NCBI GenBank assembly: GCA_963833225.1
Contig: CAWHXD010000006.1
Span: 160,001-224,000, forward strand
Source: an uncultured Chloroflexia bacterium
GTDB lineage: Bacteria > Chloroflexota > Limnocylindria > Limnocylindrales > CSP1-4
Length of the DNA stretch: 64,000 nucleotides
Direction of reading: 5' to 3'
Below the pieces are notes generated by a model. That model was not told the origin of the DNA and did not search any database. It saw only the letters and a program-made list of their open reading frames with translations. Each line of letters begins with the position of its first letter. The stretch's first letter is position 1. A program made the position numbers and the translations under genes. This document shows positions 2,937 to 42,512 of the stretch, piece by piece.

Positions 2937-3610
2937 GCGTCGTCCCCGGTCGGGCGCCGGTCGGGATCGGCGCGCCACTCCCGGTACGAGTACCCGAACG
3001 CGCCGACGATGGTCGCGATCAGCATCCCGGCCATGACCGCGAGCACCAGGGGCAGCTGGCCAGTGAGTGCGGCGGCGATCATCAGCAGGCCCGTCACCAC
3101 GAACAGCCGGCCAACGAGCCGGTGGGTTCGCTCCCACGAGCGCTCGCTGGTGAGCGTCCAGGGCGTCCGCACGCCGAACATGAAGTTGCTGCGGACCGTC
3201 CCCAGGACGTTGCCGATCAGGGCGATCAGGACACCGCCGCCCATGCCCACGACCAGCCCGATCGGGACGGCCACGCCCACGCCGGCAAGCACGGTGGTGA
3301 GGTGGATCACCCCGAAGAACAGGACCAGCGTGATCGCCATCGTCCGGTAGGCGCTCGCGGACCGCCGCAGGTGTTCCCTGCGCGGCTCCACCCGCGGGAC
3401 CAGTGCCATCAGGCCGATGGTCGCGGTCGTTGCCACGGGCATGATCAGGAACCCGACGAGCGCGGGAGCGAACCCGTCGGCCTGGCCATCCGCGTTCCAG
3501 TGGATCGGTACCGACGCATCGAAGCCGACGGCGATGAGGCCCCAGGCAGTGATCGCGGCCTCGAGGGCGATGACCACCCCGCCGGCCGTGTAGAAGCGCC
3601 GGAGGTTCAC
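2933..3610 (-). CDS. sdpI: SdpI family immunity protein (DUF1648 + SdpI)
   Basis: VPIHWNADGQADG (DUF1648) and NFMFGVRTPWTLTSERSWERTHR (SdpI); GTG 3610 overlaps the regulator stop. Confidence 0.85.
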   Translation of the reverse strand: MNLRRFYTAGGVVIALEAAITAWGLIAVGFDASVPIHWNADGQADGFAPALVGFLIMPVATTATIGLMALVPRVEPRREHLRRSASAYRTMAITLVLFFGVIHLTTVLAGVGVAVPIGLVVGMGGGVLIALIGNVLGTVRSNFMFGVRTPWTLTSERSWERTHRLVGRLFVVTGLLMIAAALTGQLPLVLAVMAGMLIATIVGAFGYSYREWRADPDRRPTGDDA

Positions 3611-3885
3611 TGGCTGGCCTCCGTGGGGTCGATCCCGAAGGTGTCGAAGAGGGCCATCAGAGCCTCCTGCAGGACGGTCTGGTTGAGACGGTAGGTCACG
3701 CTGGTGCCGGCACGCTCGGCCTGGACGAGCCCAGCCTCGCGAAGGACCGCGAAATGGCCGGACATCGTCGGCCACGAGAGCTCGAACTGGCCGGCGAGCT
3801 CGCCGGCGGTCATCGGGCGCTCCCGGAGGAGGCCCAGGATCCGGCGGCGCGTCGGATCCGCGAGGGCCTTGTAGACACGGTTCGT
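3607..3885 (-). CDS. sdpR: ArsR-family autorepressor SdpR-like, probable ACG start
   Basis: (T)NRVYKALADPTRRRILGLLRERPMTAGELAGQFELSWPTMSGHFAVLREAGLV; AGGAG lies 7 nt upstream of ACG 3885. Confidence 0.85.
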   Translation of the reverse strand, partial: TNRVYKALADPTRRRILGLLRERPMTAGELAGQFELSWPTMSGHFAVLREAGLVQAERAGTSVTYRLNQTVLQEALMALFDTFGIDPTEASQ

Positions 3886-4058
3886 GGCGCGGCTCCTGTT
3901 TCGTCGAGCGACTTGTTAGGCAGCTAGCAAAATAGCACCGGGCGTCAACGCGCGTCGAGCCACGTTCTGGGGGGAGACCGCACGCCTACGCTGCTAGACT
4001 CCGGGTGCCGCGGACATGTCCCGTCGCGGCGATCCCACGACGTCCCCGGAGGCGCACC

Positions 4059-4880
4059 ATGACCGACGACCGCGAGCGCTGGGCCCTGATCCTTGGAGCT
4101 TCCTCCGGGATGGGCGAGGCCACCGCGCTCGCCCTGGCGGGTGCCGGCTACCGGATCTGCGGCGTCCACCTGGACTTCCGGGCTGCGCTGGCGCACGTCG
4201 AGGAGATCAAGGCCAAGATCGGCGAGCTTGGCTCCGAGGCGCTGTACTTCAACATGAACGCGGCGGACGACGACAAGCGGCATGCCGCCCTCACGACCCT
4301 CCGCGAGCGATTCGACCAGTCGGTCGCGGCCGGCGGGCATCCGTACGTCCGCGTGGTCATGCACTCGCTCGCCTTCGGCTCGCTGGTGCCGTTCCTGGCC
4401 GAGGACCCCAAGGGTGCCGTCGACCGCAAGAAGATGGAGATGACCCAGGACGTCATGGCCAACAGCCTCGTCTACTGGGTCCAGGACCTGTGGCGGAGCG
4501 GCTTCCTCGAGCGGGGATCGCGGATCTTCTCGATGACGTCGGAGGGGTCCAGCCGCGTCGTTCCCAGCTACGGGGTCGTGTCGTCGGCCAAGGCCGCGCT
4601 CGAGTCGCACACCCGGCAGCTGGCCATGGAGCTCGCCCGGCTCGGGACGGGAGTCACGGCCAACACCATCCGGGCGGGCGTCACGCGCACGCCGGCGCTG
4701 ATGAAGATCCCCGAGCGGGACGCAATCATCGAGGCGGCGACCCGCCGCAACCCCACGGGGCGAATGACAACGCCCCAGGATGTGGCGAGCACGATCCTCG
4801 CGCTCTCGGGCGAGGGGACCGACTTCATCAACGGCGAGATCATCGGCGTCGATGGCGGCGAGTTCATCACCGGCTCATAG
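4059..4880 (+). CDS. SDR oxidoreductase, enoyl-ACP reductase (FabL/FabI-like)
   Basis: LILGASSGMG Rossmann motif, YGVVSSAK (YxxxxxxK) catalytic motif, NPTGRMTTPQDVA, VDGG; GGAGG RBS. Confidence 0.8.
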   Translation: MTDDRERWALILGASSGMGEATALALAGAGYRICGVHLDFRAALAHVEEIKAKIGELGSEALYFNMNAADDDKRHAALTTLRERFDQSVAAGGHPYVRVVMHSLAFGSLVPFLAEDPKGAVDRKKMEMTQDVMANSLVYWVQDLWRSGFLERGSRIFSMTSEGSSRVVPSYGVVSSAKAALESHTRQLAMELARLGTGVTANTIRAGVTRTPALMKIPERDAIIEAATRRNPTGRMTTPQDVASTILALSGEGTDFINGEIIGVDGGEFITGS

Positions 4881-5970: not shown

Positions 5971-7011
5971 CTAGCCGAGCCGGTGCTCGGCCGCCCAGGC
6001 CGTCCTGACGCGCGCCTCCGGGGTCATCCCCAGGCGGCCGTTGTCGTCCACCCACCACGCGGCCACGCCGCGCGCCCGGGCATCGTCGGCGATGCCGTCG
6101 TGTCCGGCAAGGAACAGGGCCTTGCTCCAGACCTCCGCCCAGGCCGGGTCGGGGGCGGCCACGGTCACGGCGATCAGCCCGGTGCGAGCTGGGTCGCCCG
6201 TGCGCGGGTCCACCAGGTGGTGCACGGCCATCCCATCCGGTCCAACCCAGTTCCGGACCCGGACGGACGACGTTGCGACGGCACCCGCCCCCACGGCCAC
6301 GACCACTACCGGGTCGGCGCTCGCAGGATCCGGCGCGGCGGGATCCTCGACCCCGACCTGCCAGCCATCGGCCGGCGCCTCGCCACCAGCCACGAGGTCG
6401 CCACCCGCATCGAGCAGCAGCCCCGCACCGGGCTCCAGCGCTCCGAGCGCCCGATCGCGAGCCCAGCGAAGGGCGAGCCCCTTGCCGATCCCGCCCAGGT
6501 CGACCGGAATGGAAGGCACATGGACGAGCCGGCCGGCGTCAGTGGAACCCTGGGGGTCAGGCGCGGCCGCGGGCAACGCATCGAGCCGCGATTGCGCGTC
6601 GCCATCACCCGGCGCCAGGTCCGCGCCGTGCTCGCCGATCCGTTCCAGCGCCCCCAGCACGGAGGCGTCGAACCGTCCGTCGGTCACGCGAGCCGCCCGG
6701 TCGATCGCGGCGAGCGCCCTGCGCAGGCGCCATGAGACGCGGACGATCTGTCCGCTGCCGGCGAGCCGGTTGATGCGCGTGAGCTCCGAGTCGTCGCGGA
6801 ACCGCGAGAGGGCAAGGTCAACCGCGTCGAACTCGGATCGAACCTCCGCCCATGCGCGGTCGGCGGCGGCCAGCGCCGCGGCCGAGGCGGGCTCAGGAAG
6901 CCGGACCGTCATTCGGAGCGCGGATCCGAGCGCGCGCGCCGCGAAGGCGACGGTCCGATCTGGACCGTCGCCTTCGAGTGGAGGAGCCCCGGCAGGTGGG
7001 ATGAAGTTGAT
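5971..7011 (-). CDS. apbE: FAD:protein FMN transferase (ApbE)
   Basis: LSRFRDDSELTRIN, TDGRFDASV, DLGGIGKG, DAGGD, ATSS, HHLVDPRTG. Start uncertain: ATC 7011 after GAGG, or ATG 6912. Confidence 0.9.
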   Translation of the reverse strand: MNFIPPAGAPPLEGDGPDRTVAFAARALGSALRMTVRLPEPASAAALAAADRAWAEVRSEFDAVDLALSRFRDDSELTRINRLAGSGQIVRVSWRLRRALAAIDRAARVTDGRFDASVLGALERIGEHGADLAPGDGDAQSRLDALPAAAPDPQGSTDAGRLVHVPSIPVDLGGIGKGLALRWARDRALGALEPGAGLLLDAGGDLVAGGEAPADGWQVGVEDPAAPDPASADPVVVVAVGAGAVATSSVRVRNWVGPDGMAVHHLVDPRTGDPARTGLIAVTVAAPDPAWAEVWSKALFLAGHDGIADDARARGVAAWWVDDNGRLGMTPEARVRTAWAAEHRLG

Positions 7012-7018
7012 CGCGGCC

Positions 7019-7579
7019 TCAGCCTCCGGACGCACCGGACTTGCCGGAGGTCTTCGGGGCAGAGCCTCCGCCGCCGCCGCCGCTCGAGATCGGGCCGCGA
7101 ATGGACACCGTCGGCAGCTTGATCCGGGCCGGAAGGGCCGCGGCCGAGCCCTGGACTTCGGCAACCAGGGCCGCCAGGCTGTCCAGCCGCGCCTGGTAGG
7201 CCGCAACATCGGCCCCCGTTGCCCCGTAATCGGTGATCAGCGCGCTGATGGAGCCGTTCGCGGCCTGGATCCGGGCCGCCAGCGCGTCGTTCGCGGCCTT
7301 CGACGTGGCGACCGCCTGGAGCAGCGGCTCCCGGGTCGCGGCGATCGAGGCGTCGTCCCGAGCCTGGAGGACGGAGATCCCGGCCAGCGTCGCGGCGTAC
7401 ATGGCCGCCGAGGCACCGATCAGCATCCCGGCCCGGGCGGGCATCGAGAGGATGGTCTCGTGCCGCGCGACGGTCGGACGATCGATCGCCCGCGGCACGG
7501 CGATGGGACTCTCGGTCGCGCCGGCCGCCGGTCGACGGCGGACTCCAACGCCGATGGCGGGGAGGGCGCGCTCAGTCAT
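7019..7579 (-). CDS. Membrane-anchored coiled-coil protein with C-terminal SGAS tail (candidate flavinylation substrate)
   Basis: One hydrophobic segment, Ala/Leu heptad region, Pro/Gly linker, ends APKTSGKSGASGG; overlaps the upstream gene's stop. Confidence 0.7.
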   Translation of the reverse strand: MTERALPAIGVGVRRRPAAGATESPIAVPRAIDRPTVARHETILSMPARAGMLIGASAAMYAATLAGISVLQARDDASIAATREPLLQAVATSKAANDALAARIQAANGSISALITDYGATGADVAAYQARLDSLAALVAEVQGSAAALPARIKLPTVSIRGPISSGGGGGGSAPKTSGKSGASGG

Positions 7580-8081
7580 CGTCCCGCTCCCCACCGCCGC
7601 CACCACCACCGCCGCCCCCGCCGCCACCACCACTGCTGCGCCTCGCGGCGGCCTGGCGATTGAGCGCGGCCTGGCGGGTCGCCGCGCGATTGAGCGCGTC
7701 GAGGCGGCCCTGCGCGGACTTGAGCTGCTTCTGCATCTTGGTGAGCTTGTCCTTGGCGGCCGCCAGCTGGTCCTGGAGCAGCGTGGCGCTCTCGGTGTCA
7801 CTGTCCATGGAGCCATTGGCCGCGATCAGCGCGGCCTGGAGGTCTGACACCTGCGTCGCCACGCCGCCGATCTGCGCCTCGAGGTCTGCGGCGCGCCCGG
7901 ATTCGGCCGCGTACTGGTCGTTGATCGTGCTCAGGCTCACCGGAGACGTGTCGAGGGGCGCTTCCGCCACCCGCCATTCGGACGCGAGCTGGACGGTGTA
8001 CGCGCCAACGCCGATCACGGCGGCGGTCGCGGCGAGCACGAGCGCGCGTCGTGCGATCCTGGTGAGCAGGTCCCTGGACAT
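7572..8081 (-). CDS. Membrane-anchored or secreted coiled-coil protein with poly-Gly/acidic tail
   Basis: MSRDLLTRIARRALVLAATAAVIGVG then LEAQIGGVATQVSDLQAAL...LTKMQKQLKSAQGRLDAL; TGATG-coupled to the upstream gene. Confidence 0.72.
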   Translation of the reverse strand: MSRDLLTRIARRALVLAATAAVIGVGAYTVQLASEWRVAEAPLDTSPVSLSTINDQYAAESGRAADLEAQIGGVATQVSDLQAALIAANGSMDSDTESATLLQDQLAAAKDKLTKMQKQLKSAQGRLDALNRAATRQAALNRQAAARRSSGGGGGGGGGGGGGGERDDD

Positions 8082-8788
8082 CAGGACTCCTCCACGGTGA
8101 CGGTTGCCGGCCGGGGCCGGACGAGGGACATGGACGACGTTGCCGGCTCCTCGACGCGCCGCGGGCGAGCCTTCGCGGTCCACCAGCGATGGGCGACGCC
8201 CAGGAGGATCGGCACGCCGGTCGCCACGTACAGCGGCATGAGCGCGCCGCCGTCCGTGCCGGCAAGGACGCTGTGCACCCACGTGAGCAGGAACGTCAGC
8301 GCCGAGAGACGATGGATCTTGAGCCACCACCCGTCGGGCAGGAGCTTGGTCCACTTGGCGGTGATCGCGGTGACGAGCATCGCGTACGCGGTCAGCGTTC
8401 CGATTGCGATGGCGGGTGTCCGGTACTCGGACAGGCCCGGGACCAGCGCGCCGAGCCAGCCGACCTTGGCGAACGGGTCGATCGCCATCAGGACGATGTG
8501 CAGGATGAGGAACGCCCAGACGAAGACGGTGAGCAGCTCGTGCCACGGAACGACCTGGCGGGTCGTCCGCCAGGCTGCGGTATTGCGCGGGTGGCTGAGG
8601 ACGAGGCCAAGGCCCACCTGGAGGGTGAGCAGGAGGTAGGCAGTCACCCCGAGTGCGCGCGCGGCGATCCACGGTCGCAGCTCGAGGACCCGGGGATCAG
8701 CTGCGGGGAGCACCTGGTCGGTGACGGCCAGCGCCACGAGGGCGACCACGGCCCCGATGGCGACGAGCGTGATGGCGCCGATGCGCAT
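8081..8788 (-). CDS. Ferric-reductase-like transmembrane (MsrQ-like) cytochrome b
   Basis: About 6 TM helices with four His in two pairs (WHE...ILHI; KIHR...WVHS) as in heme-b ligands; GGAGG RBS before ATG 8788. Confidence 0.8.
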   Translation of the reverse strand: MRIGAITLVAIGAVVALVALAVTDQVLPAADPRVLELRPWIAARALGVTAYLLLTLQVGLGLVLSHPRNTAAWRTTRQVVPWHELLTVFVWAFLILHIVLMAIDPFAKVGWLGALVPGLSEYRTPAIAIGTLTAYAMLVTAITAKWTKLLPDGWWLKIHRLSALTFLLTWVHSVLAGTDGGALMPLYVATGVPILLGVAHRWWTAKARPRRVEEPATSSMSLVRPRPATVTVEES

Positions 8789-8892
8789 GCCTGGACCTCC
8801 GTGGCGTCTCCGCATGGTGTGGTACGACTCCGAGGCAGCCCAGCACCCGAAGGTTTCACCTCGACCGGCGCCGTTGGTCCCCCGCCCACCCC

Positions 8893-8919
8893 GTACCAGC
8901 CGGCGGGCGCCGCTGGTAC
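8893..8919 (-). terminator. GC hairpin downstream of the metal-binding protein gene (possible terminator)
   Basis: GTACCAGC-N11-GCTGGTAC about 10 nt past the stop; no U-tract. Confidence 0.35.
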
Positions 8920-8928
8920 CCGGGCTCG

Positions 8929-9855
8929 TCAGCCGCCCAGCGCCCGGACCACCTGGTCGAGGTTCCAGGTCATCACGCCCACGTAGGTGTCGACCGGGGC
9001 ATCACCAACCGTGTCCGTGTACAGGTCGGAGACCACCACCACGCCCGTCTCGTCCGCGATGGTCCGCACGAGGTCCTCGCTGAACTGGGCCTCCGCGAAG
9101 ATCGCGCGGACGCTGTCCGCCCTGACCACGCGGATGAGGTTCGCAACGTCGCCAGCGCTCGGGTCCTGGCCGGGTGCGTCGACGATCGTGCCGTCGATCC
9201 GGAGGCCGTAGGCGGCGGCGAAGTACGGGAACGCATCGTGGAACGAGAGGACCGTGCGGTTTGCCTCCGGGATCGCCCCGAGCGTCGCGCGCAGCGTCGC
9301 GTCGAGACCGTCGAGCACCTCGGTGTAGGCGCTGAGCCCGGCCGCGTACTCGGCAGCGTGCCCCGGATCCACCGCCGTGAGCTGCTCGGCGATGCGCTCC
9401 GCGTACTTGGCGGCGTAGGCCGCGTTGAGCCAGAGATGGGGGTTTGTCGCCAGGCCGTCGGGGCCGCTCGTGATGTAGTCGACGCCGGGGAGGTCCTCGC
9501 CAAGGCGGACGACGGGAGCGGCCGTGCCCGCGTCGGTCACCAGGTTCGCCAGCCAGTCGTCGAGCCCCAGGCCGTTGAGGAACACGAGATCGGCGGCGGC
9601 GAGTCGCCGCACGTCTGACGGCGTGGGGTCGAAGGTGTGGACCTCGCCGCCCCGCGGCACGAGGCTGTCCACCGTCACCCGGCTGCCACCGACCTGGGCG
9701 ACCAGGTCGGCCAGGATCGTGGTCGTCGTCACCACCTGCACACCACCGGACGACGGTGCGGCCGCACCCCCCGTGTCGGCGCATGCGGCCGTGAGAACGA
9801 TCAGGATCAGGGCGGAGATCACCAGCGGCATCGCCCGCACGGGTCGGCGCGTCAT
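8929..9855 (-). CDS. znuA: Zn/Mn ABC transporter substrate-binding lipoprotein
   Basis: Lipobox LTAAC, EVHTFDPTPSD, NPHLWLN, FHDAFPYFA. Confidence 0.88.
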   Translation of the reverse strand: MTRRPVRAMPLVISALILIVLTAACADTGGAAAPSSGGVQVVTTTTILADLVAQVGGSRVTVDSLVPRGGEVHTFDPTPSDVRRLAAADLVFLNGLGLDDWLANLVTDAGTAAPVVRLGEDLPGVDYITSGPDGLATNPHLWLNAAYAAKYAERIAEQLTAVDPGHAAEYAAGLSAYTEVLDGLDATLRATLGAIPEANRTVLSFHDAFPYFAAAYGLRIDGTIVDAPGQDPSAGDVANLIRVVRADSVRAIFAEAQFSEDLVRTIADETGVVVVSDLYTDTVGDAPVDTYVGVMTWNLDQVVRALGG

Positions 9856-9861
9856 CCCGGC

Positions 9862-10329
9862 TCAGCCCTCCTGCGCCTGGGCCGACGCTGCCTGGCAGGC
9901 GGCGCACAGTCCGAAGATCTCGAGCCGATGCTCGGTGACCCGGAAGCTCGAGCGGCGCCCGATCTCGCCGAGGATCTCCGCGAGGCCGCGATCCGCCACA
10001 TCGAACGAGCGGCCACAACCGGTGCAGATCGCGTGGTGGTGGTGGATCGGGTCACAGGCGACGTAGGCGTGATCGCCCCCGGGCAGGTCGATCCGCTCGA
10101 CGAGGCCCAGCGACGCGAACAGGTCCAGCGCCCGGAAGATCGTTGCCCGGCCCACGTCCAGCTGCCGGCGGCGAGCGTCGTCCTCGAGCTGCGCCGCGGT
10201 GAAATGGCCCTCGCGAGCCGCGATCAGATCGGCGACGGCGCGCCGTGGCGCCGTGAGCCGCTGGCCGGCCCGTTGGAGCGCGGCGACAAGGTGGCCGCCG
10301 ATGGGGGCCTCAGCCGGTGCGGTGGTCAC
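9862..10329 (-). CDS. zur: Fur-family regulator (Zur-like)
   Basis: RLTAPRRAV, HFTAAQL, ATIFRAL, HHHHAICTGCG, FGLCAAC; sits inside the metal-ABC operon. Confidence 0.85.
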   Translation of the reverse strand: MTTAPAEAPIGGHLVAALQRAGQRLTAPRRAVADLIAAREGHFTAAQLEDDARRRQLDVGRATIFRALDLFASLGLVERIDLPGGDHAYVACDPIHHHHAICTGCGRSFDVADRGLAEILGEIGRRSSFRVTEHRLEIFGLCAACQAASAQAQEG

Positions 10330-11210
10330 GCCGGCGTTCCGCCGACCGCCAGGGCGTCGTCGACCACCACGGGATCCGACCGGTGCCGCCGCCTGGCGAG
10401 CGGTCCGCGCGGCCCGAGGAGGAGGGCCACACCGAAGGCGGCTGTCTGGACCAGGACGATGGTGGCGCCGCTCGCGACGTCGGCCCAGTAGGACACGTAG
10501 AGTCCCACGACCGCGCTGGCGATCCCGATCACGGCGGCCAGCAGCATCACCCGCGTGAACTGCACCGTGAGCAGCTGGGCGGCAGCTGCCGGGGTGACCA
10601 GCATGGCCACGACCAGGATGATCCCCACGGCCTGGAGGCTGACGACGATCGTGAGCGCGACCAGCGCCAGGAACAGGTACTCGAGGCGGTCGACCTTGAT
10701 CCCCGAGGCGGCCGCCCCGAGGGGGTCGAACGTCGCGTACAGGAGCTCCTTCCAGAGCACCGCGACCGTGGCGATGACGCCGCCACCGAGGATGAGCAGG
10801 GCAACCAGGTCCCCGGTTCCGATCGCGAGGACGTTGCCGAACAGGAAGCTGAACAGGTCGGCCACGTAGCCGCGGATGCTGCTGAACATGAACACGCCGA
10901 GGGCGAAGGTGCCGGCGAACAGCACCCCGATCGCGGTGTCCTGGCGCACGCCGGCCCGCTTGGTCACGAACCCGATGGCCAGGGCGGTGCCCACGGCCGC
11001 GATCGCTGCGCCGATGTAGAACGGGATGCCGAGCAGGTAGGCGGCGACGACACCCGGGAAGCCCGCATGGGCGATCGCGTCGCCGATGAACGCCACGCCG
11101 CGCAGCACCACATAGGTGCCCACCACGGCGCACACGACGCCCACGAGCGCGAGGGCGACCAGCGCCCGGATGAAGAAGCCGTCACCGAGGGGACCGAGCA
11201 GGAGGTCCAT
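10326..11210 (-). CDS. znuB: Metal ABC transporter permease
   Basis: FIGDAIAHAGFPG, FLFGNVL, TFDP, GIILVVAMLVTPAAAA. Confidence 0.9.
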   Translation of the reverse strand: MDLLLGPLGDGFFIRALVALALVGVVCAVVGTYVVLRGVAFIGDAIAHAGFPGVVAAYLLGIPFYIGAAIAAVGTALAIGFVTKRAGVRQDTAIGVLFAGTFALGVFMFSSIRGYVADLFSFLFGNVLAIGTGDLVALLILGGGVIATVAVLWKELLYATFDPLGAAASGIKVDRLEYLFLALVALTIVVSLQAVGIILVVAMLVTPAAAAQLLTVQFTRVMLLAAVIGIASAVVGLYVSYWADVASGATIVLVQTAAFGVALLLGPRGPLARRRHRSDPVVVDDALAVGGTPA

Positions 11211-12127
11211 CAGCGGTTCACCTCGTGGAAGTGGCGCTCGCCGGGGTTCGCGTCGTCGTGGTGGTGGGCGTCATCGAGGACGATCGTCGAACCACCCAGG
11301 ATCAGCAGGTGGCCGCCATACGCCGCCGCGAGCACATCGGTGTCGAGGACCAGCTCCGACGGGCCGTACGCGACCACCGTGCGGTTGATGGCGAGGACCT
11401 GCTGGAACCGTTGCGAGGCGCACGCGAGATCATGCGTCGTGGCGACCACGGTCTTGCCCCGCGCGGCCTGGGCCTCGAGAAGGTCCATCAGCAGCTCCTG
11501 GGTGGTGGCGTCGATGCCCGTCACCGGCTCGTCGAGCAGGAACAGGTCCGGCTCGGCGGCGAGCGCACGGGCCAGGAACACGCGCCGGCGCTGGCCGCCG
11601 GACAGCCGCCCGATCTGCGTCCCCAGATGGCCGTCCATGTGGACCTGTCCGAGGGCGTCACGGACGGCGCGCCGGTCGTCCGGACCGGGACGACGGACCC
11701 GCCCCAGTCGTGGAAAGCGGCCCATCATGACGACATCCTCGACCGAGACCGGGAATGCCCAGTCCACCAGCTCCGCCTGCGGGACGTAGGCGACCCGCCT
11801 CGCCTCCCGGCCCGCGGGGCCGCCGAGCACCTCGATCCGGCCGCTCCACGGGGTGGCCAGCCCGGCCATCAGCTTGAGCAGCGTGCTCTTGCCCGCGCCG
11901 TTGGGGCCCACCACCGCCAGCAGGCTGCCGGGCTCCACGGCGACGGTGACGTGCTCGAGGGCCGTGCGCTCGCCGTAGCCCGCGGAGACGTCGCTCAGCC
12001 ACACGTCCGCATGGGCGTGCGCATGGGCCGCGTCCACGCCGGCCGCCGGGTCGTGGTCGTGGCCGCGATGGGCAGGGATGCCCGCAGGGTGGGAAGTCCC
12101 CGGCGGAGCCGGGCTCAGGGTGTCCAT
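11210..12127 (-). CDS. znuC: Metal ABC transporter ATP-binding protein with His-rich termini
   Basis: GPNGAGKST, YVPQ, LSGGQRRR, LLDEP; HRGHDHD/HAHAHA at the N-terminus and HHHDD at the C-terminus. Confidence 0.9.
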   Translation of the reverse strand: MDTLSPAPPGTSHPAGIPAHRGHDHDPAAGVDAAHAHAHADVWLSDVSAGYGERTALEHVTVAVEPGSLLAVVGPNGAGKSTLLKLMAGLATPWSGRIEVLGGPAGREARRVAYVPQAELVDWAFPVSVEDVVMMGRFPRLGRVRRPGPDDRRAVRDALGQVHMDGHLGTQIGRLSGGQRRRVFLARALAAEPDLFLLDEPVTGIDATTQELLMDLLEAQAARGKTVVATTHDLACASQRFQQVLAINRTVVAYGPSELVLDTDVLAAAYGGHLLILGGSTIVLDDAHHHDDANPGERHFHEVNR

Positions 12128-12144: not shown

Positions 12145-12237
12145 CTAGCGACACACGTCGCGAATCCTGCCCCAACGCCGCGTGTGCGCGACAATGCTGT
12201 CTGTTCCTCGCCCCCAGCACCAGACCGGAGGCCTCCC

Positions 12238-13071
12238 CTGAGCGGCAAACAACCCACCCCGTCGACCACCCGCAAGGAGCGTCGCGCCGCCGAGCGCCGC
12301 GACCGGTTCGAGGCCGCCCGGGAGGAGCGGCGCGCGCGCCCGGCCGGTGGCGGTGGCGGGCCCTCGTTCATCAACAGTCGGAACATGACCATCGCCGGCG
12401 TGCTGATCGGCGTGCTGATCGTGGCCGTCGTGGCCGTCGGCCAGCTGGGCAACAAGGCGACCGGCCGGCTTGTCGACCCGGGATTCGCCTACCAGGCTGC
12501 GGTCGAGGACGGGTCGAACCTGGGCTCGGTGGATGCGCCGGTCCTGCTCGAGGTCTTCGAGGACTACCAGTGCCCGGTCTGCGCCCGGTACTCGCTGGAC
12601 GTGGAGCCGACCATCGTCAACAAGTACGTGGCCAGTGGCCAGGTCCGGATCGTGCACCACGACATCGACCTGCTGGGCGGTGGCGGCGACGAGTCCCGGA
12701 TCCCGGCGCTCGGAGCCTACTGCGCGGACCAGCAGGGCCTGTACTGGTCCTACGCGCACTGGATCTACAACAACCAGGACGGTGAGAACCAGGGTGGCTT
12801 CCGGCGCGAGCGCGTGATCCAGATCGCGGTGGCGGCGGGCGTGGACGAGGCGGCCTTCAACACCTGCATGGACAGCCCGGAGGCGGCAGCCGACGTCACC
12901 CAGACCACCGACATGGCTGCCGGCCTGGGCATCAACTCCACGCCGACGCTGCGGATCAACGGTGGTGACCTGATCCGGTCGCTGCTGACCGCGACGGACC
13001 TGAGCACCCTGATCGATGCCGAGCTGGCCAAGGCCAGCGGGGCGCCGGCCTCCCCGACCACCGCCCCCTGA
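12238..13071 (+). CDS. Membrane-anchored DsbA/thioredoxin-fold protein
   Basis: EDYQCPVC active site, GINSTPT cis-Pro loop, one TM helix; probable CTG start 6 nt after GGAGG. Confidence 0.85.
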   Translation: MSGKQPTPSTTRKERRAAERRDRFEAAREERRARPAGGGGGPSFINSRNMTIAGVLIGVLIVAVVAVGQLGNKATGRLVDPGFAYQAAVEDGSNLGSVDAPVLLEVFEDYQCPVCARYSLDVEPTIVNKYVASGQVRIVHHDIDLLGGGGDESRIPALGAYCADQQGLYWSYAHWIYNNQDGENQGGFRRERVIQIAVAAGVDEAAFNTCMDSPEAAADVTQTTDMAAGLGINSTPTLRINGGDLIRSLLTATDLSTLIDAELAKASGAPASPTTAP

Positions 13072-38994: not shown

Positions 38995-40249
38995 TGGAGT
39001 TGCTTCGGTTTCGTGGACGATCATTTCATGCCACTGATTGCTGGATCGACCACCTCCTCTCGAACTCGACGGTGAGATGTTGCCGATGGCCGAGTGGCGG
39101 CGGGTGCGGTTGTAGAAGACCTCGATCCAGTCGAAGACGGCTGCCCTCGCCTCGGCCCGGGTCACCCAGTGGCTGCGGTCGATGAGCTCGGTCTCGAGGC
39201 TGGCGAAGAGCTCTCGGCATGGCGTTGTCGTAGCAGGTGCCGGGGGCCCCGGTGGAGGCCGCGATCCCCGATCGGCGAGTCGGTCGCGGAACGCCTCGCT
39301 CGTGTACTGGGAGCCGCGATCGGAGTGGAAGATCACCCCCACCGGCCGCGGAACCCGAGGGCAGCGTCGAGGGCCGACGTGACGAGGTCGGTCCGCTGCC
39401 GCTCGGCCAACGACCAGCCCACGACCCGCCGGGAACAGGCATCGAGGACGGTTGCGAGGTAGAGCTTGCCCTCGTCGGTCGGGAGCTCGGTGATGTCGCC
39501 GACCCACAGCCGGCCGGGGCGGTCAGCGAGGGCGGTGAAGCGGCGCCGGACGAGGTCGGGCGCGGGGCTCGCGGCCGGGTCCTGCCGTGTGGTGGCGCGG
39601 TACCGGCGGCGGGTGACCCCCGGATCCCGGCCAGGCGCATCAGGCGGGCCACCCGGCGGAGACCCACCGGGATGCCGCCGCCCCGGATCTCGGCCCGGAT
39701 CCGGGGCGCGCCGTACGTGCCGCGGCTCGCGGCGTGGGCCAGCGCGATCCGGGCGACGAGCCGGGCATCGGCCTCCCGGCGCGGGGAGGGTGCCCTGCCG
39801 GGCCAGGCCCAGAAGCCGGTCGGGGAGACGCCGAGCAGGCGGCACATGCGCCAGACGGATGGCTGGCCTTCTCACGCTCGATGAACTGATACGCGCTCAG
39901 GCGCGCCGGCTCGTCTCCCGGGCGAGGGAAGCCGAGGCCGTACCTGGATCTCCCGCTCCTCCTCGAGGACGCGCACCCTCCGGCGGAGGGCGACGACTTC
40001 CGTGTGCTCGTCGAGCGCCCTCCGCTCCCGCGGGCTGGCCTGGGCCTAGTCTGCTCGACCCAGCGCCGGATCGTCTCGTGGCTCACGCCCAGGTCGGCAC
40101 CGACGGAGCGCAGCGTGGCGCCGGGCTGCCGGGCGAGGCGGACGGCCTCCTCCCGGAACTCCCGGGAGAAGCGGGTTGTTCTGGCCATGGGGACACCTCC
40201 AGGGGACCTCGTCACACAATCGGGTGTCCACGAAACCGGGTCAAGTCTA
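38995..40249 (-). mobile_element. IS3-family insertion sequence (orfA/orfB, frameshifted)
   Basis: Inverted ends TGGAGTTGCTTCGGTTTCGTGGAC and GTCCACGAAACCGGGTCAAGTCTA. OrfA MARTTRFSREFREEAVRL; OrfB fragments YGAPRI, LWVGDIT, FHSDRGSQY, FYNRTRRHS; about 1.25 kb. Confidence 0.9.
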
Positions 40250-40579
40250 CATCGGCCCGGACCGCGGGCGGCTCCAGGAGCACCGTCCACCACATTGGGG
40301 TGAGGCCGTCCCCACGGGGGGTGGACGGAGAGCGATCCGTCGTGATCCTCGAGGACCCCAGGGCGACATACCTCCGGCGGTCGTTGGCGGGGTTGTAGAT
40401 GGGGCGGGCCGATGTTGCCGTGCCAGCAGATGCCGGGACCCTTCGATGTCGCCGACGGACGACAGAGCCCGGCTTTGTCGACGTCCCGGCTGATGACCAC
40501 AGGTACATCGAAGCGTCTTCGAGCGGGACTCCCGCACATGTAGGGGAGTGCGGGGCTGGCCTCGACGGTCGGCCGGAGC

Positions 40580-41230
<651 letters not shown>

Positions 41231-42512
41231 TGACGTCAAGACTCTTGTGTAAAAGCAACGAGCGGGCGCGCTGCCAGGAGCTCGTTGAGGCGGAGCACCC
41301 CGCCATACAGGATCCGGTCTGCTGACCGGCGGTCAGCGAGCGCGCCGATCGGCCGGAGCCGGCGGCGGAGCTCGCGGAAGGCGCGCTCGAGCAGGTTGGT
41401 GGTGCGCAGGCTGGCCCGGAGCGGCTCGGGCAGCGAGAACACGGCGAGCAGGCTGTCGAGGTCGCGCTCGAGCCCGCGGACGAGGCGGGGATGGCGCTCC
41501 CGCCAGGCCTTCGCCCAGCGCCAGTAGGCTGCCACCGCGGCCCGCCTCGTGCGGGCCCGGTAGATCGAGCGCAGGCTGCGCAGGCAGGCCCGCCGTTCGG
41601 CGAGCGGGAGCGCCTCGAGGATGTTCCGGAGCCGGTGGGTCCAGCAGCGCTGCAGCTCGGCTGCGGGGAACGCCTCGGTGACCGCGGCGGCGATCCCGCC
41701 GGCCCCGTCGGCGGCCACGAGGAGGACGCCCTCGGGGTCGAGCCCCCGCTCGACGAGCGAGCGCAGGAGGATCCCCCAAGCCGCCGCCGACTCCGCGCTG
41801 GCCTGGCGATAGTCGAGCAGCTCGCGCCGACCGGCCGCATCGATCCCGTAGACCGCGAGGATCACCCGCCTGGCGGCCCGGCCGCTCCGGTCGCGGACCG
41901 AGACCCACAGCCCGTCGCAGAGCAGGTAGCGGGCCGCGAACGGGATCGGCCGCCGGTGGAAGGCAGCGACCCGGGCGTCGAGCGCCCGGCCGAGCCGGCT
42001 GATCGCGCTCGCGCTGAGCGGGACGCCGGTGAGCCGCTCAGCGAGCCGGGCCGTCTCGCGGGTGGAGAGGCCCCGGCTGAACGCCTCGCGCAGCAGCCCG
42101 TCGACGAGGCTCGTCCGGCGGGCCGCCCGGGCCAGGAACGACGGGCGGTACGGGACGAGCCTCCGGCGCGGGACGTCGAGCTCGGTCGCCCCGAGCTCGG
42201 TCACGAGCAGGCGCCGGTAGATCCCGTTGCGGTGGTCGAGCCGCTCGCGCGTGCGTTCGTAGCGCCCCGCGAGGATCAGCGCCGTCAGCTCATCCTCCAT
42301 CGTCGCCTCGAGGATCGTCCGGACGGCGGCGAGGAGCTCGGGGCGCAGGTCGCCCCACAGCGCCTCCTCGTCCCTCACCTCCGCCCAGCGCTGGGCTGGT
42401 GTCCGGTCGGTCAGAGCGGGTACCGTTGCCATGGGCGTACTCCTTCTGTGCTGGAACACGTGAAGTTGTACGCCCGCTCGTTTCGGGCTTTCCCACAAGA
42501 GACGCTACGTCA
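41231..42512 (-). mobile_element. IS256-family insertion sequence
   Basis: Imperfect IRs TGACGTCAAGACTCTTGTGTAAAAGC and GCTTTCCCACAAGAGACGCTACGTCA enclose a single transposase. Confidence 0.88.
41236..42432 (-). CDS. IS256-family (mutator-type) transposase
   Basis: RNGIYRR, GLSTR, YLLCDG, ADGAGG, QRCWTH, TTNLLERAFRELRRR; AAGGAG RBS. Confidence 0.9.
   Translation of the reverse strand: MATVPALTDRTPAQRWAEVRDEEALWGDLRPELLAAVRTILEATMEDELTALILAGRYERTRERLDHRNGIYRRLLVTELGATELDVPRRRLVPYRPSFLARAARRTSLVDGLLREAFSRGLSTRETARLAERLTGVPLSASAISRLGRALDARVAAFHRRPIPFAARYLLCDGLWVSVRDRSGRAARRVILAVYGIDAAGRRELLDYRQASAESAAAWGILLRSLVERGLDPEGVLLVAADGAGGIAAAVTEAFPAAELQRCWTHRLRNILEALPLAERRACLRSLRSIYRARTRRAAVAAYWRWAKAWRERHPRLVRGLERDLDSLLAVFSLPEPLRASLRTTNLLERAFRELRRRLRPIGALADRRSADRILYGGVLRLNELLAARPLVAFTQES

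Follow-up and report, generated by a model that had tools for sequence, protein, structure and literature searches.

On balance, we think it probable that CC2, a small anchored protein encoded beside apbE in an uncultured Chloroflexia bacterium, is a natural ApbE substrate without a flavin domain, and that its tethered FMN would relay electrons outward from the di-heme membrane protein FRD. The gene anatomy, its conservation, and the synteny are directly established, as is the absence of known substrates; from these we infer the FMN attachment, the electron flow, the partner, and the acceptor. Throughout, "the window" is the whole stretch of DNA that was analyzed (64,000 nucleotides).

Layout of the Locus

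The cluster contains the following features, all of them on the minus strand.

8788-8081, minus: FRD, predicted six-helix ferric-reductase-like/MsrQ-like di-heme membrane protein, 235 aa
8081-7572, minus: CC1, predicted N-in single-pass protein with a long helix, a Gly/Ser-rich linker, and an acidic (His/Asp/Glu) C-terminal tail, 169 aa
7579-7019, minus: CC2, predicted N-in single-pass protein (TM at about residues 51-71) with a 77-residue extracytoplasmic helix, a disordered tether, and a conserved tail, 186 aa
7022..7057, minus: CC2 tail motif P175-x5-S-G-A-S184-G185-G186, proposed flavinylation tag
7028..7030, minus: Ser184 codon, predicted FMN-bearing residue; invariant in alignments A1, A3, and A6
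5971..7035, minus: ApbE (FAD:protein FMN transferase family), without signal peptide; 354 aa if started at the GTG at 7035

The initial annotation had described four tightly packed genes, with apbE starting within 10 nt after CC2. The minus-strand order and the overlaps among FRD, CC1, and CC2 hold: the FRD stop and CC1 start have 1 nt in common (TGATG), CC1 and CC2 overlap by 8 nt, and a GGAGG lies 7 nt ahead of the FRD start (ATG at 8788). The start of apbE had to be moved. No ATG, GTG, or TTG is found in its frame in the 10 nt that follow the CC2 stop. Only one canonical start, the GTG at 7035, retains the ApbE fold's first strand; it falls within the Gly-Ala codons of SGAS and gives a 17-nt overlap with CC2. 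The other candidate start is an ATC at 7011. The SGAS itself is encoded at 7039-7028 (residues 181-184), just where it had been placed in the 7019-7579 protein, whose C-terminus reads ...GGGGGGSAPKTSGKSGASGG.

The ApbE Enzyme and Its Missing Leader

The identification of ApbE is borne out by Pfam PF02424 (142.3 bits against a cut-off of 25.6, over residues 114-379 of the long ORF) and by homology to solved structures (E 4.7e-20 for 3pnd and 1.2e-19 for 4xgw). The stretch HHLVDPRTGDP aligns with SHVIDPQTGRP of a solved ApbE, and the His of this H-x-x-D-P-x-T-G stretch is presumably the catalytic base that the review cited below names. From its sequence, the protein is predicted to function as an FMN transferase.

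No signal peptide or hydrophobic leader was found for ApbE in the window or in any related locus examined, and in relatives the first ApbE strand begins just a few residues into the protein. An N-terminal lipoprotein or secretion signal is typical of most characterized ApbEs, though not strictly defining. Since ApbE is leaderless and the CC2 tail is predicted to lie outside, enzyme and proposed target are apparently separated by the membrane. Other ApbE paralogues and Sec-type FMN_bind proteins of the order pose the same puzzle, and the leader problem is therefore not specific to FRD-CC1-CC2-ApbE; cytosolic ApbEs are also recorded in a review of these enzymes (PMC12052999). The order-wide lack of export signals on ApbE raises the question of where and when extracytoplasmic proteins are flavinylated.

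CC2, CC1, and Their Orientation

Pfam and NCBIfam searches place CC2 in no family, and its named database relatives, none of which has a Pfam domain, are all labeled "hypothetical protein" or with a generic JGI name. CC1 and CC2 match no characterized family; such a match would have counted against the initial annotation. The helical stalk proposed there appears in the AF2 model as one long CC2 helix (46-148; pLDDT >90 for about residues 60-145) that gives way to a disordered tail (pLDDT about 50). The predicted extracytoplasmic helix measures 77 residues in 35 of 37 relatives, which would be about 11 nm if straight, and the tether measures 23-43 residues (median 30).

The CC2 tail is predicted to lie outside the cell. 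All 37 CC1 sequences carry a charge of +2 to +4 in their 7-15-residue N-terminus, with a neutral or acidic C-flank, and CC2 has a long Arg-rich N-region. At locus L036, CC1 is fused in frame to FRD and follows the cytoplasmic FRD C-terminus, so the CC1 helix should be outside. The only invariant CC1 column is R11, and R12 is kept in at least 90% of sequences. An RR, a possible sign of twin-arginine (Tat) export, stands immediately ahead of the hydrophobic segment in 35/37 CC1 and 19/37 CC2 sequences (mean hydropathy of CC2, 1.3-2.0), and the genome encodes TatC; an RR beside a membrane anchor is also what the positive-inside rule alone would give. CC1 is likely the partner helix of CC2 and is a probable paralogue of it with an acidic, His-containing tail; at loci L033-L035, CC1 itself bears HATTGASGG.

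The Conserved Tail

Across 45 loci, the CC2 tail follows the consensus P-x5-[ST]-G-A-S-G-x(0-4)-end. The Ser (position 0), the Gly at +1, and the [ST] at -3 are present in 45/45 loci, Pro at -9 and Ala at -1 in 42/45, and Gly at -2 in 34/45, with one to five residues beyond the Ser. Conservation of the motif among homologues, on which the initial annotation had staked its proposal, is thus found for the Ser and Gly throughout and for the exact [ST]GA[ST] in 32/45 tails; in the remaining 13, the core Gly at -2 has given way to R, K, S, or T, or the Ala at -1 to G. In a 37-sequence alignment, where identity to the window protein falls to about 24-40%, Y61, Y118, S184, and G185 are the sole invariant columns. 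The tails of 150 representative clusters divide into [ST]GA[ST] (87), [ST]xA[ST]G (38), [ST]xxSG (11), and "none" (14, mostly TGGSA).

The review cited above (PMC12052999) states that ApbE attaches FMN at the last position of [ST]GA[ST], and Ser184 occupies that position. The canonical Asp at -6 of D-x-x-[ST]-G-A-[ST] is absent from all 45 tails, which have H (12), T (10), S (7), N (5), or Q (4), among others, at that position. The same review reports that one tested enzyme can do without this Asp, and that seven residues are enough of a tag for ApbE, which works best when the tag ends the protein chain at either terminus.

The tail codons vary synonymously (GCG/GCC/GCA/GCT, TCC/TCG, GGA/GGC/GGG), and selection is therefore on the protein; the GGAGG or GTG overlapping these codons in the window is not conserved in related loci. 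One should not lean on a lone terminal [ST]GA[ST], which is not rare: it occurs in the last 10 residues of 41 of the 13,805 stop-to-stop ORFs of at least 150 aa in this genome. It is conservation that lifts the CC2 motif above chance. The initial annotation had placed the FMN on an unstructured, Gly-rich tip. The disorder agrees with the AF2 model, but the Gly run is confined to this genome and its closest relatives, and the kept feature is P-x5-[ST]-G-A-S-G. The core proposal, a bare-tail substrate without a folded flavin domain, gains from motif conservation, synteny, and the lack of a match to any characterized family; we regard the initial annotation's reading as a whole as partly supported.

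The Di-Heme Membrane Protein

FRD had been called an MsrQ/ferric-reductase-like protein with four heme-type His. Its match to Pfam Ferric_reduct (PF01794; 25.4 bits, E 1.6e-5) is below the gathering score of 28; at E<=1e-3, PF01794 is matched by 18 of 37 relatives (best 2.8e-9) and Ni_hydr_CYTB (cytochrome b561, PF01292) by 16. Bis-His ligation of two hemes b calls for two His pairs, on the third and fifth helices and 13-14 residues apart. All 37 relatives keep His83/His97 (spacing, 14) and His159/His172 (spacing, 13), and the AF2 model (pLDDT 80.5, six long helices) has these pairs on helices 82-103 and 154-177. Foldseek places STEAP2, SpNOX, DUOX1, and NOX5 at the top, but with E values of 0.09-0.5. 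Structural alignment with VIA-align gives Z 13.3 for SpNOX (rmsd 2.8, 144 residues), 13.1 for STEAP4, and 12.8 for cytochrome b561, although helical bundles commonly reach Z values just short of about 13 or lower. There is no dehydrogenase domain fused to FRD (235 aa, single Pfam match), and Pfam and NCBIfam profile searches revealed no recognizable flavin-binding fold or motif in FRD, CC1, or CC2.

Synteny and Distribution

All 45 loci keep the order FRD-CC1-CC2; they belong to two orders of the class Limnocylindria (Chloroflexota). The host group consists of soil and freshwater bacteria. ApbE directly follows CC2 in 41/45 loci, so the predicted synteny of the coiled-coil genes with apbE and a ferric-reductase-like gene is what one finds; two of the four misses are contig ends, and two are second copies with a complete locus elsewhere in the genome. 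Throughout the family, starts and stops overlap by 1-11 nt, and this, together with the L036 fusion, suggests that the products form a complex. Within the family sample, ApbE is present in 111/112 CC2-bearing genomes versus 91/147 genomes without CC2 (the 91 include G248, an unpublished genome), and in the single exception the CC2 match abuts a contig end.

The initial annotation saw no recognizable ApbE substrate domain in the window, and the observation extends to the whole genome (86% complete): no match to FMN_bind, to NqrB/RnfD, or to DUF2271 was found in either. DUF3570 was also not found in the genome; the same search matched no control genome, and its absence therefore says little. Five relatives (G059, G211, G049, G139, and G238) have a single ApbE match each and no FMN_bind, NqrB/RnfD, or DUF2271 match. 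In four of the five, this ApbE lies directly after CC2, by coordinates or by locus L028, from which the position in G049 is deduced. Genomes of the order may have up to seven ApbE matches, and many have FMN_bind proteins.

Upstream of FRD lies a run of metal genes on the same strand (8929..12040; Pfam ZnuA, FUR, ABC-3, and ABC_tran).

8929-9855, minus: ZnuA/TroA-type metal-binding protein (Pfam)
9862-10299, minus: Fur-family regulator (Pfam)
10326-11210, minus: ABC-3 permease (Pfam)
11210-about 12040, minus: ABC ATPase (Pfam)

In NCBIfam they come nearest to MntC/AztC and MntA, though no score reaches the cut-off. SBP/transporter genes adjoin FRD in 8/8 loci of the genus with enough flank and in 9/20 loci of other genera. 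An SDR gene is conserved on the flank of the cluster opposite the metal transporter, and part of the neighborhood is therefore simply inherited gene order.

A Paralogous Trio

On another contig of the genome, a second trio encodes a small anchored protein, ApbE2, and FRD2. Of 30 fetched loci, 27 have a small protein whose tail takes the form T-[RT]-Q-S-G-x(0-5)-end (TRTSG in one), and this tail is carried on a Pro/Gln/Thr-rich spacer without a helix. Pro/Thr/Gln-rich spacers are typical of envelope-spanning linkers. Judged from the sequences, the trio appears to be an independent repeat of the design of an anchored tail, ApbE, and FRD.

Proposed Mechanism and Alternatives

In the reading that we favor, the adjacent ApbE would move FMN from FAD onto the Ser184 hydroxyl in the P-x5-[ST]-G-A-S-G tag, which finishes a disordered tether of 23-43 residues hung from a strictly 77-residue helix that is membrane-anchored beside FRD. 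Electrons would pass the membrane via the two FRD hemes and reduce the tethered FMN, which would act as a leashed flavin shuttle to extracytoplasmic acceptors. These would plausibly be Fe(III) or oxidized Mn, for use by the Fur-linked metal ABC importer whose genes lie just upstream. Metal uptake is possibly the role of the relay; against it counts that, beyond the genus, only about one locus in two has the transporter neighborhood. The relay as a whole has to contend with the absent Asp at -6, the substituted core in 13/45 tails, and an ApbE apparently on the opposite side, and an FMN without a pocket would be exposed to O2 and have the unmodulated potential of free flavin.

A bolder version, which we regard as doubtful, makes CC2 a peptide-only carrier. 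Here, the cytoplasmic, leaderless ApbE would load the tag of the unfolded tail, and CC2 would be exported, or inserted, already carrying its cofactor, perhaps through Tat, at which the CC1 twin-Arg hints. With the helix as an 11-nm ruler, the leashed FMN could travel back and forth between the di-heme cytochrome and acceptors at distances of up to about 20 nm. TGASG with ApbE1 and T[RT]QSG with ApbE2 would then be two orthogonal natural flavin-tag systems.

The FMN might also not swing freely. The tether could fold back and park the isoalloxazine on the outer FRD face or on CC1/CC2, giving a static heme-heme-FMN wire. A median tether of 30 residues, when extended, is about as long as the 77-residue helix, and the tag can therefore reach back to the membrane, where the predicted outer loops of FRD hold invariant residues (P28, D104, P117, G118, G177, and D179, with T178 in at least 90%). 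Flavinylation sites on an unstructured C-terminal extension beside a conserved flavin site are described by Huang et al. 2024 (PMC11334425); the static wire would resemble these ApbE-associated FMN reductases, in which the extension sets FMN into a site already there. Against such docking stand a tether that is variable in length (23-43 residues) and poorly conserved, the lack of a recognizable flavin-binding fold or motif in all three proteins, and the helix-less spacer under the tail of the second trio. We think parking unlikely. Less probable again is a tail that carries no flavin at all, being otherwise modified, docking to a partner or protease, or attaching the protein to the envelope, with ApbE serving an unrecognized substrate or acting as an FAD pyrophosphatase. 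The missing -6 Asp, the second trio's T-[RT]-Q-S-G (which differs from [ST]GA[ST] at both middle positions), the leaderless enzyme facing an outside tail, and the multiple ApbE and FMN_bind proteins of the order all suit this explanation. It must nevertheless account for an invariant Ser exactly at the modified position of a known motif and for the five relatives whose single ApbE has no FMN_bind, NqrB/RnfD, or DUF2271 partner. The consensus of FRD relatives offers no other conserved [ST]GA[ST] (the conserved outer loop is AGTDxGAL), and no enzyme for another tail modification is conserved in the cluster.

If helices and tails were instead cytoplasmic (N-out, C-in), the FMN would feed the inner heme and replace the NAD(P)H/FAD domain of NOX-type enzymes. 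This would suit an ApbE without an export signal and an FRD without a fused dehydrogenase domain, but the charge bias points the opposite way (CC1 in 37/37; Arg-rich N-region of CC2), the L036 fusion puts the CC1 helix outside, and the spacer of the second trio resembles envelope-spanning linkers. We consider this arrangement very improbable.

Comparison with Known Systems

If the outward relay from FRD is true, covalent flavins can be deployed as tethered shuttles by a substrate that is a helix plus a 10-residue tag, and surveys that demand FMN_bind domains or signal peptides overlook whole systems. Compact tag and enzyme pairs for protein labeling would be gained as well, with ApbE enzymes that have no signal peptide and therefore may be soluble. 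It would also point to a reductive metal acquisition route in an uncultured Chloroflexota class.

The nearest relatives are the MsrQ-like flavinylation clusters described by Meheust et al. 2021 (eLife, PMC8238504), in which apbE likewise lies beside a six-helix, two-heme PF01794-type protein. These are proposed there to transfer electrons extracytosolically, and some are suggested to be assimilatory iron reductases. Unlike the clusters described in that paper, the CC2 locus has no FMN_bind gene or NAD domain, its ApbE is leaderless, and the substrate would be a helix with a bare tail. The engineered 7-residue Flavin-tag (PMC12052999) is also a short linear motif, has the modified Ser/Thr as its last residue, and places FMN on an unstructured peptide; as given in that review, it is D-x-x-[ST]-G-A-[ST] and prefers Thr, whereas the CC2 tail has no Asp, always Ser-Gly, and a conserved Pro at -9.

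[quoted passage not shown] 2024 (PMC11334425), FMN_red also has its flavinylation site on an unstructured C-terminal extension, but there the extension feeds FMN into the protein's own folded ancestral flavin domain, which CC2 lacks. The multi-flavinylated coiled-coil proteins of the same paper likewise use a coiled-coil scaffold for extracellular covalent flavins; their flavins are held in FMN-bind1 domains, whereas the CC2 scaffold has a peptide tag only. In the natural ApbE substrates that these cited papers describe, the flavin is always in a folded or membrane domain. If CC2 is flavinylated as proposed, the engineered Flavin-tag has a natural precedent and physiological counterpart.

The known swinging arms (lipoyl, biotinyl, and phosphopantetheinyl) are tethered carriers that visit distant sites and are hung from folded carrier domains. 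The secreted flavin shuttles of Shewanella and Listeria diffuse freely and take electrons to extracellular Fe(III). A flavin leashed by a peptide would fall between the swinging arms and these freely diffusing shuttles.

Gene arrangement

The initial annotation described four tightly packed genes and a terminal SGAS on the second coiled-coil product; both are confirmed, with the genes placed at 8788-5971 on the minus strand. The features of the unit and its flanks are as follows.

8788-8081, minus strand: FRD, a ferric-reductase-like di-haem membrane protein of 235 aa; GGAGG precedes the ATG
8081-7572, minus strand: CC1, a single-pass helical protein of 169 aa; its ATG and the FRD stop codon have one base in common
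7579-7019, minus strand: CC2, a single-pass helical protein of 186 aa; 8 nt overlap with CC1
7035-5971, minus strand: ApbE, FAD:protein FMN transferase family; probable start GTG, 17 nt inside CC2, the sole canonical start that preserves the first fold strand
Upstream, same strand: ZnuA/TroA-type binding protein, Fur-family regulator, ABC-3 permease and ABC ATPase
Downstream, convergent: PfkB kinase, which closes the unit

An alternative ApbE start would be the ATC at 7011. The likely GTG (window 7033-7035) sits inside the Gly-Ala codons of the CC2 SGAS tag, an overlap that is peculiar to the window's genome. Pfam recognizes the window's ApbE at 142 bits; for CC1 and CC2 it gives scattered coiled-coil noise only, and NCBIfam assigns no name to either.

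A promoter and terminator scan returned no promoter-like sites and a single terminator-like one, located in apbE (0.9 expected). The gap at 8780-8935 revealed no inverted repeat, and Rfam found no match anywhere in the window. The G+C content of the window is 64-74% in 2-kb windows, with a fall to 0.637 at 40001-42000 compared with about 0.72 elsewhere. Adjoining the metal ABC operon, and divergent from it, is a gene for a membrane-anchored DsbA/Thioredoxin_4 protein (12184-13071, plus strand).

Conservation of the CC2 tail

CC2 ends in a tag of the form P-x5-[ST]-G-A-S-G, in which Ser184 (position 0) is the residue proposed to carry FMN. The tag was examined in 45 loci. The genus itself supplied 20 of them, the rest of the family a further 20, and a different order of the class 4; the last is a second copy. 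The initial annotation had proposed looking for the motif in homologues, and the tail is indeed conserved there: with positions counted from the last Ser-Gly as anchor, Ser at 0 and Gly at +1 are found in 45/45 loci, as is Ser or Thr at -3, while Pro at -9 and Ala at -1 each occur in 42/45 and Gly at -2 in 34/45. The exact [ST]GA[ST] is present in 32 of the 45 tails, and the protein ends after 1-5 further residues. Among 37 CC2 sequences, with identity to the window protein as low as 24%, no columns other than Y61, Y118, S184 and G185 are invariant.

A CC2 profile run exhaustively against 1.84 billion representative proteins matched 454 clusters (E<=1e-3). The best 150 of these were scored on their last 12 residues: [ST]GA[ST] was found in 87, [ST]xA[ST]G in 38 and [ST]xxSG in 11; the other 14 were scored as having none, and most of them carry TGGSA. 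A terminal [ST]GA[ST] by itself is not rare, being found in 41 of the 13,805 long ORFs of the window's genome.

Given the overlap in the window, one should ask whether the tail is kept for the sake of the ribosome-binding site and start codon of apbE rather than for the peptide. This is ruled out, since the GGAGG and GTG that overlap the window's tail codons are absent elsewhere and the Ala, Ser and Gly codons of the tail differ at third positions among loci; the constraint is therefore on the peptide and not on translation signals. Production of CC2 and ApbE as one protein, through a frameshift or stop codon readthrough, is likewise ruled out, because the frame of apbE relative to CC2 changes from locus to locus.

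In two loci a pair of Cys residues flanks the tag (tails NACTTGSGKPC in L021:3995-4576 and HACTTASGKAC in L022:3995-4513), and a disulfide between them could enclose the Ser in a small loop.

Association with ApbE

The initial annotation also suggested a search for synteny with apbE and a ferric-reductase-like gene. The order FRD-CC1-CC2 is kept in all 45 loci, and ApbE is directly next in 41. Two of the four loci without it (L004 and L032) stop at a contig edge, and the other two (L030 and L038) are duplicates: each of their genomes (G055 and G130) has another copy of the locus, with ApbE. Among 259 sampled genomes of the family, which are related and so not independent for the purpose of such counts, ApbE is present in 111/112 CC2 carriers (the CC2 match of the lone exception touches a contig end) and in 91/147 genomes without CC2, the unpublished G248 being one of the 91. 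The ApbE of locus L013 has five tandem EPEPSV(S/N) repeats ahead of the first fold strand (~3539-3670, CC2-plus orientation).

The window's genome, which is 86% complete, has two ApbE genes and yielded no match to FMN_bind, NqrB/RnfD or DUF2271. DUF3570 gave zero matches even in the control genomes, and that search is uninformative. Five relatives (G059, G211, G049, G139 and G238) have a single ApbE match each and no FMN_bind, NqrB/RnfD or DUF2271 match; in four of them this sole ApbE lies directly after CC2, as judged from coordinates or from locus L028 (the position in G049 is inferred from L028). The main argument for CC2 as a substrate is that an ApbE lacking any known substrate adjoins a protein in which the ApbE recognition core is the best conserved feature. 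On these comparative grounds the core of the initial interpretation, that the CC2 tail is a candidate ApbE substrate, is strongly supported.

The helical proteins and the membrane protein

Both CC1 and CC2 have a short or Arg-rich N-terminus and one weakly hydrophobic segment whose C-terminal flank is neutral or acidic; from this difference in charge the N-terminus is predicted to be inside and the remainder outside. In the AF2 model CC2 is a single helix spanning 46-148, mostly at pLDDT >90, and then a disordered tail. The extracytoplasmic helix is exactly 77 residues long in 35/37 relatives and 73 in the other 2, and the tether from the end of the helix to the conserved Ser measures 23-43 residues (median 30; 37 relatives). 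The C-terminal part of CC1 consists of a Gly/Ser/Thr-rich linker and then an acidic tail, often with His; its last two Asp codons are in part constrained by the start codon of CC2, which overlaps them. An HHalign comparison of CC1 with CC2 (probability 58%, E 9.6e-5, 77 columns) is suggestive of paralogy, with the caution that coiled-coil composition can yield such a score.

Locus L039 has an additional CC1-like frame between CC2 and ApbE (3276-4130, minus strand). L026, which is G131's second copy, has CC1 and ApbE frames broken into fragments alongside an intact CC2 and tail; the duplicate may be decaying, or the assembly may be at fault.

FRD scores 25.4 bits against Ferric_reduct, where the Pfam cut-off is 28, so membership of the family proper is borderline. 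In the alignment of 37 relatives, His 66, 83, 97, 159 and 172 are invariant, and the AF2 model (pLDDT 80.5) has six long helices, with H83/H97 on the third and H159/H172 on the fifth, an arrangement that we take to be the bis-His pattern of the ferric-reductase superfamily. The best Foldseek matches (STEAP2, SpNOX, DUOX and NOX5) have non-significant E values, and the VIA-align Z scores of 13.3 (SpNOX) and 13.1 (STEAP4) are at the edge of chance level for helical bundles. FRD is treated here as a member of that superfamily that conducts electrons across the membrane through two haems.

At L036:4414-5583 (minus strand) a continuous frame of 390 residues covers both FRD and CC1, possibly a natural fusion or the result of a lost stop codon. 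Such a fusion agrees with the predicted N-in topology of CC1 because the C-terminus of FRD is cytoplasmic, and it hints at a physical association of the two proteins.

Other carriers of the tag

A paralogous trio (system 2) is encoded by the same genome outside the window:

Contig C7:610670-612425 (L043:1501-3256): small anchored protein, ApbE2 and FRD2

The small protein is single-pass, with a Pro/Gln/Thr/Val-rich spacer, and ends in KTRQSGK. The gene for ApbE2, which is leaderless, lies 2 nt downstream and overlaps by 4 nt with that for FRD2, a second ferric-reductase-like protein inside which the contig stops; a response regulator and a histidine kinase are found upstream. The tail T-[RT]-Q-S-G, with 0-5 residues after it, is present in 27/30 related loci, one of which reads TRTSG. 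ApbE2 adjoins the small protein in 27/27 of the tail-bearing loci and FRD2 in 25/27.

CC1 can be a carrier too. In three genomes from two other genera (L033:3622-4062, L034:4383-4823 and L035:3555-4049) it has H-[AT]-T-T-G-A-S-G-G before the acidic end, and CC2 is tagged there as well, so the CC1-CC2 pair would hold two tags. Three different carriers thus hold a terminal x-x-S-G tag in company with ApbE and a di-haem protein; the fold of the carrier appears to matter less than the tag.

Export and possible function

Neither the window's ApbE nor that of any related locus examined shows a signal peptide, which is a puzzle if the tail is, as predicted, outside the cell. Across loci L094-L099 and L091-L093, a further six ApbE paralogues from the order are likewise leaderless, and FMN_bind proteins of the order carry a Sec-type signal anchor together with a canonical D-x-I-S-G-A-T-Y-T motif. 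The puzzle is thus order-wide and does not tell against CC2 in particular. It might be resolved if flavinylation took place in the cytoplasm, with export of the loaded protein afterwards. A twin-Arg directly ahead of the anchor is found in 35/37 CC1 sequences, where R11 is the only invariant column, and RR in 19/37 CC2 sequences; TatC is encoded in the window's genome. Tat export of CC1 and CC2 should be regarded as a lead only, as RR would equally fit the positive-inside rule.

The metal ABC transporter and Fur gene are directly upstream in 8/8 loci of the genus with enough flank, and a transporter gene adjoins FRD in 9/20 loci of other genera. An assimilatory metal-reductase role has been raised for some MsrQ-like systems (Meheust et al. 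2021, PMC8238504), and this neighbourhood would fit such a role; with its acidic residues and His, the CC1 tail could bind a metal ion close to the flavin. Part of the neighbourhood is merely inherited gene order, since an SDR gene on the other flank is also conserved.

Distribution and comparison with known systems

Among 401 genomes sampled from the phylum, the CC2 family is present in 11/23 genomes of the window's family and 4/16 of a second family of the same class; elsewhere in the sample there are just three weak, partial coiled-coil matches. Every named database relative is either a "hypothetical protein" or bears a generic label from JGI, and some come from "Candidatus Limnocylindrales" or Chloroflexota records. 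A literature search found no paper that joins ApbE with Limnocylindr-, and nothing closer than two Light-laboratory papers among the matches listed. The available text of Meheust et al. 2021, Huang et al. 2024 and a 2025 review (PMC12052999) describes no natural ApbE substrate without a flavin-holding domain, though the supplement of the first may list such clusters.

The review gives the motif as D-x-x-[ST]-G-A-[ST] and states that seven residues are enough for ApbE, best at a terminus, with Thr favoured over Ser. Asp-to-Ala changes had only minor effects in one enzyme, Gly-to-Ala and Ala-to-Val changes cut modification by half, and cytosolic ApbEs are known (PMC12052999). Huang et al. 2024 (PMC11334425) add the substrates Flavodoxin_4 and FMN reductase, the latter having its site on an unstructured C-terminal extension adjacent to a folded pocket for flavin, and describe FMN-bind1 domains set on coiled-coil cores.
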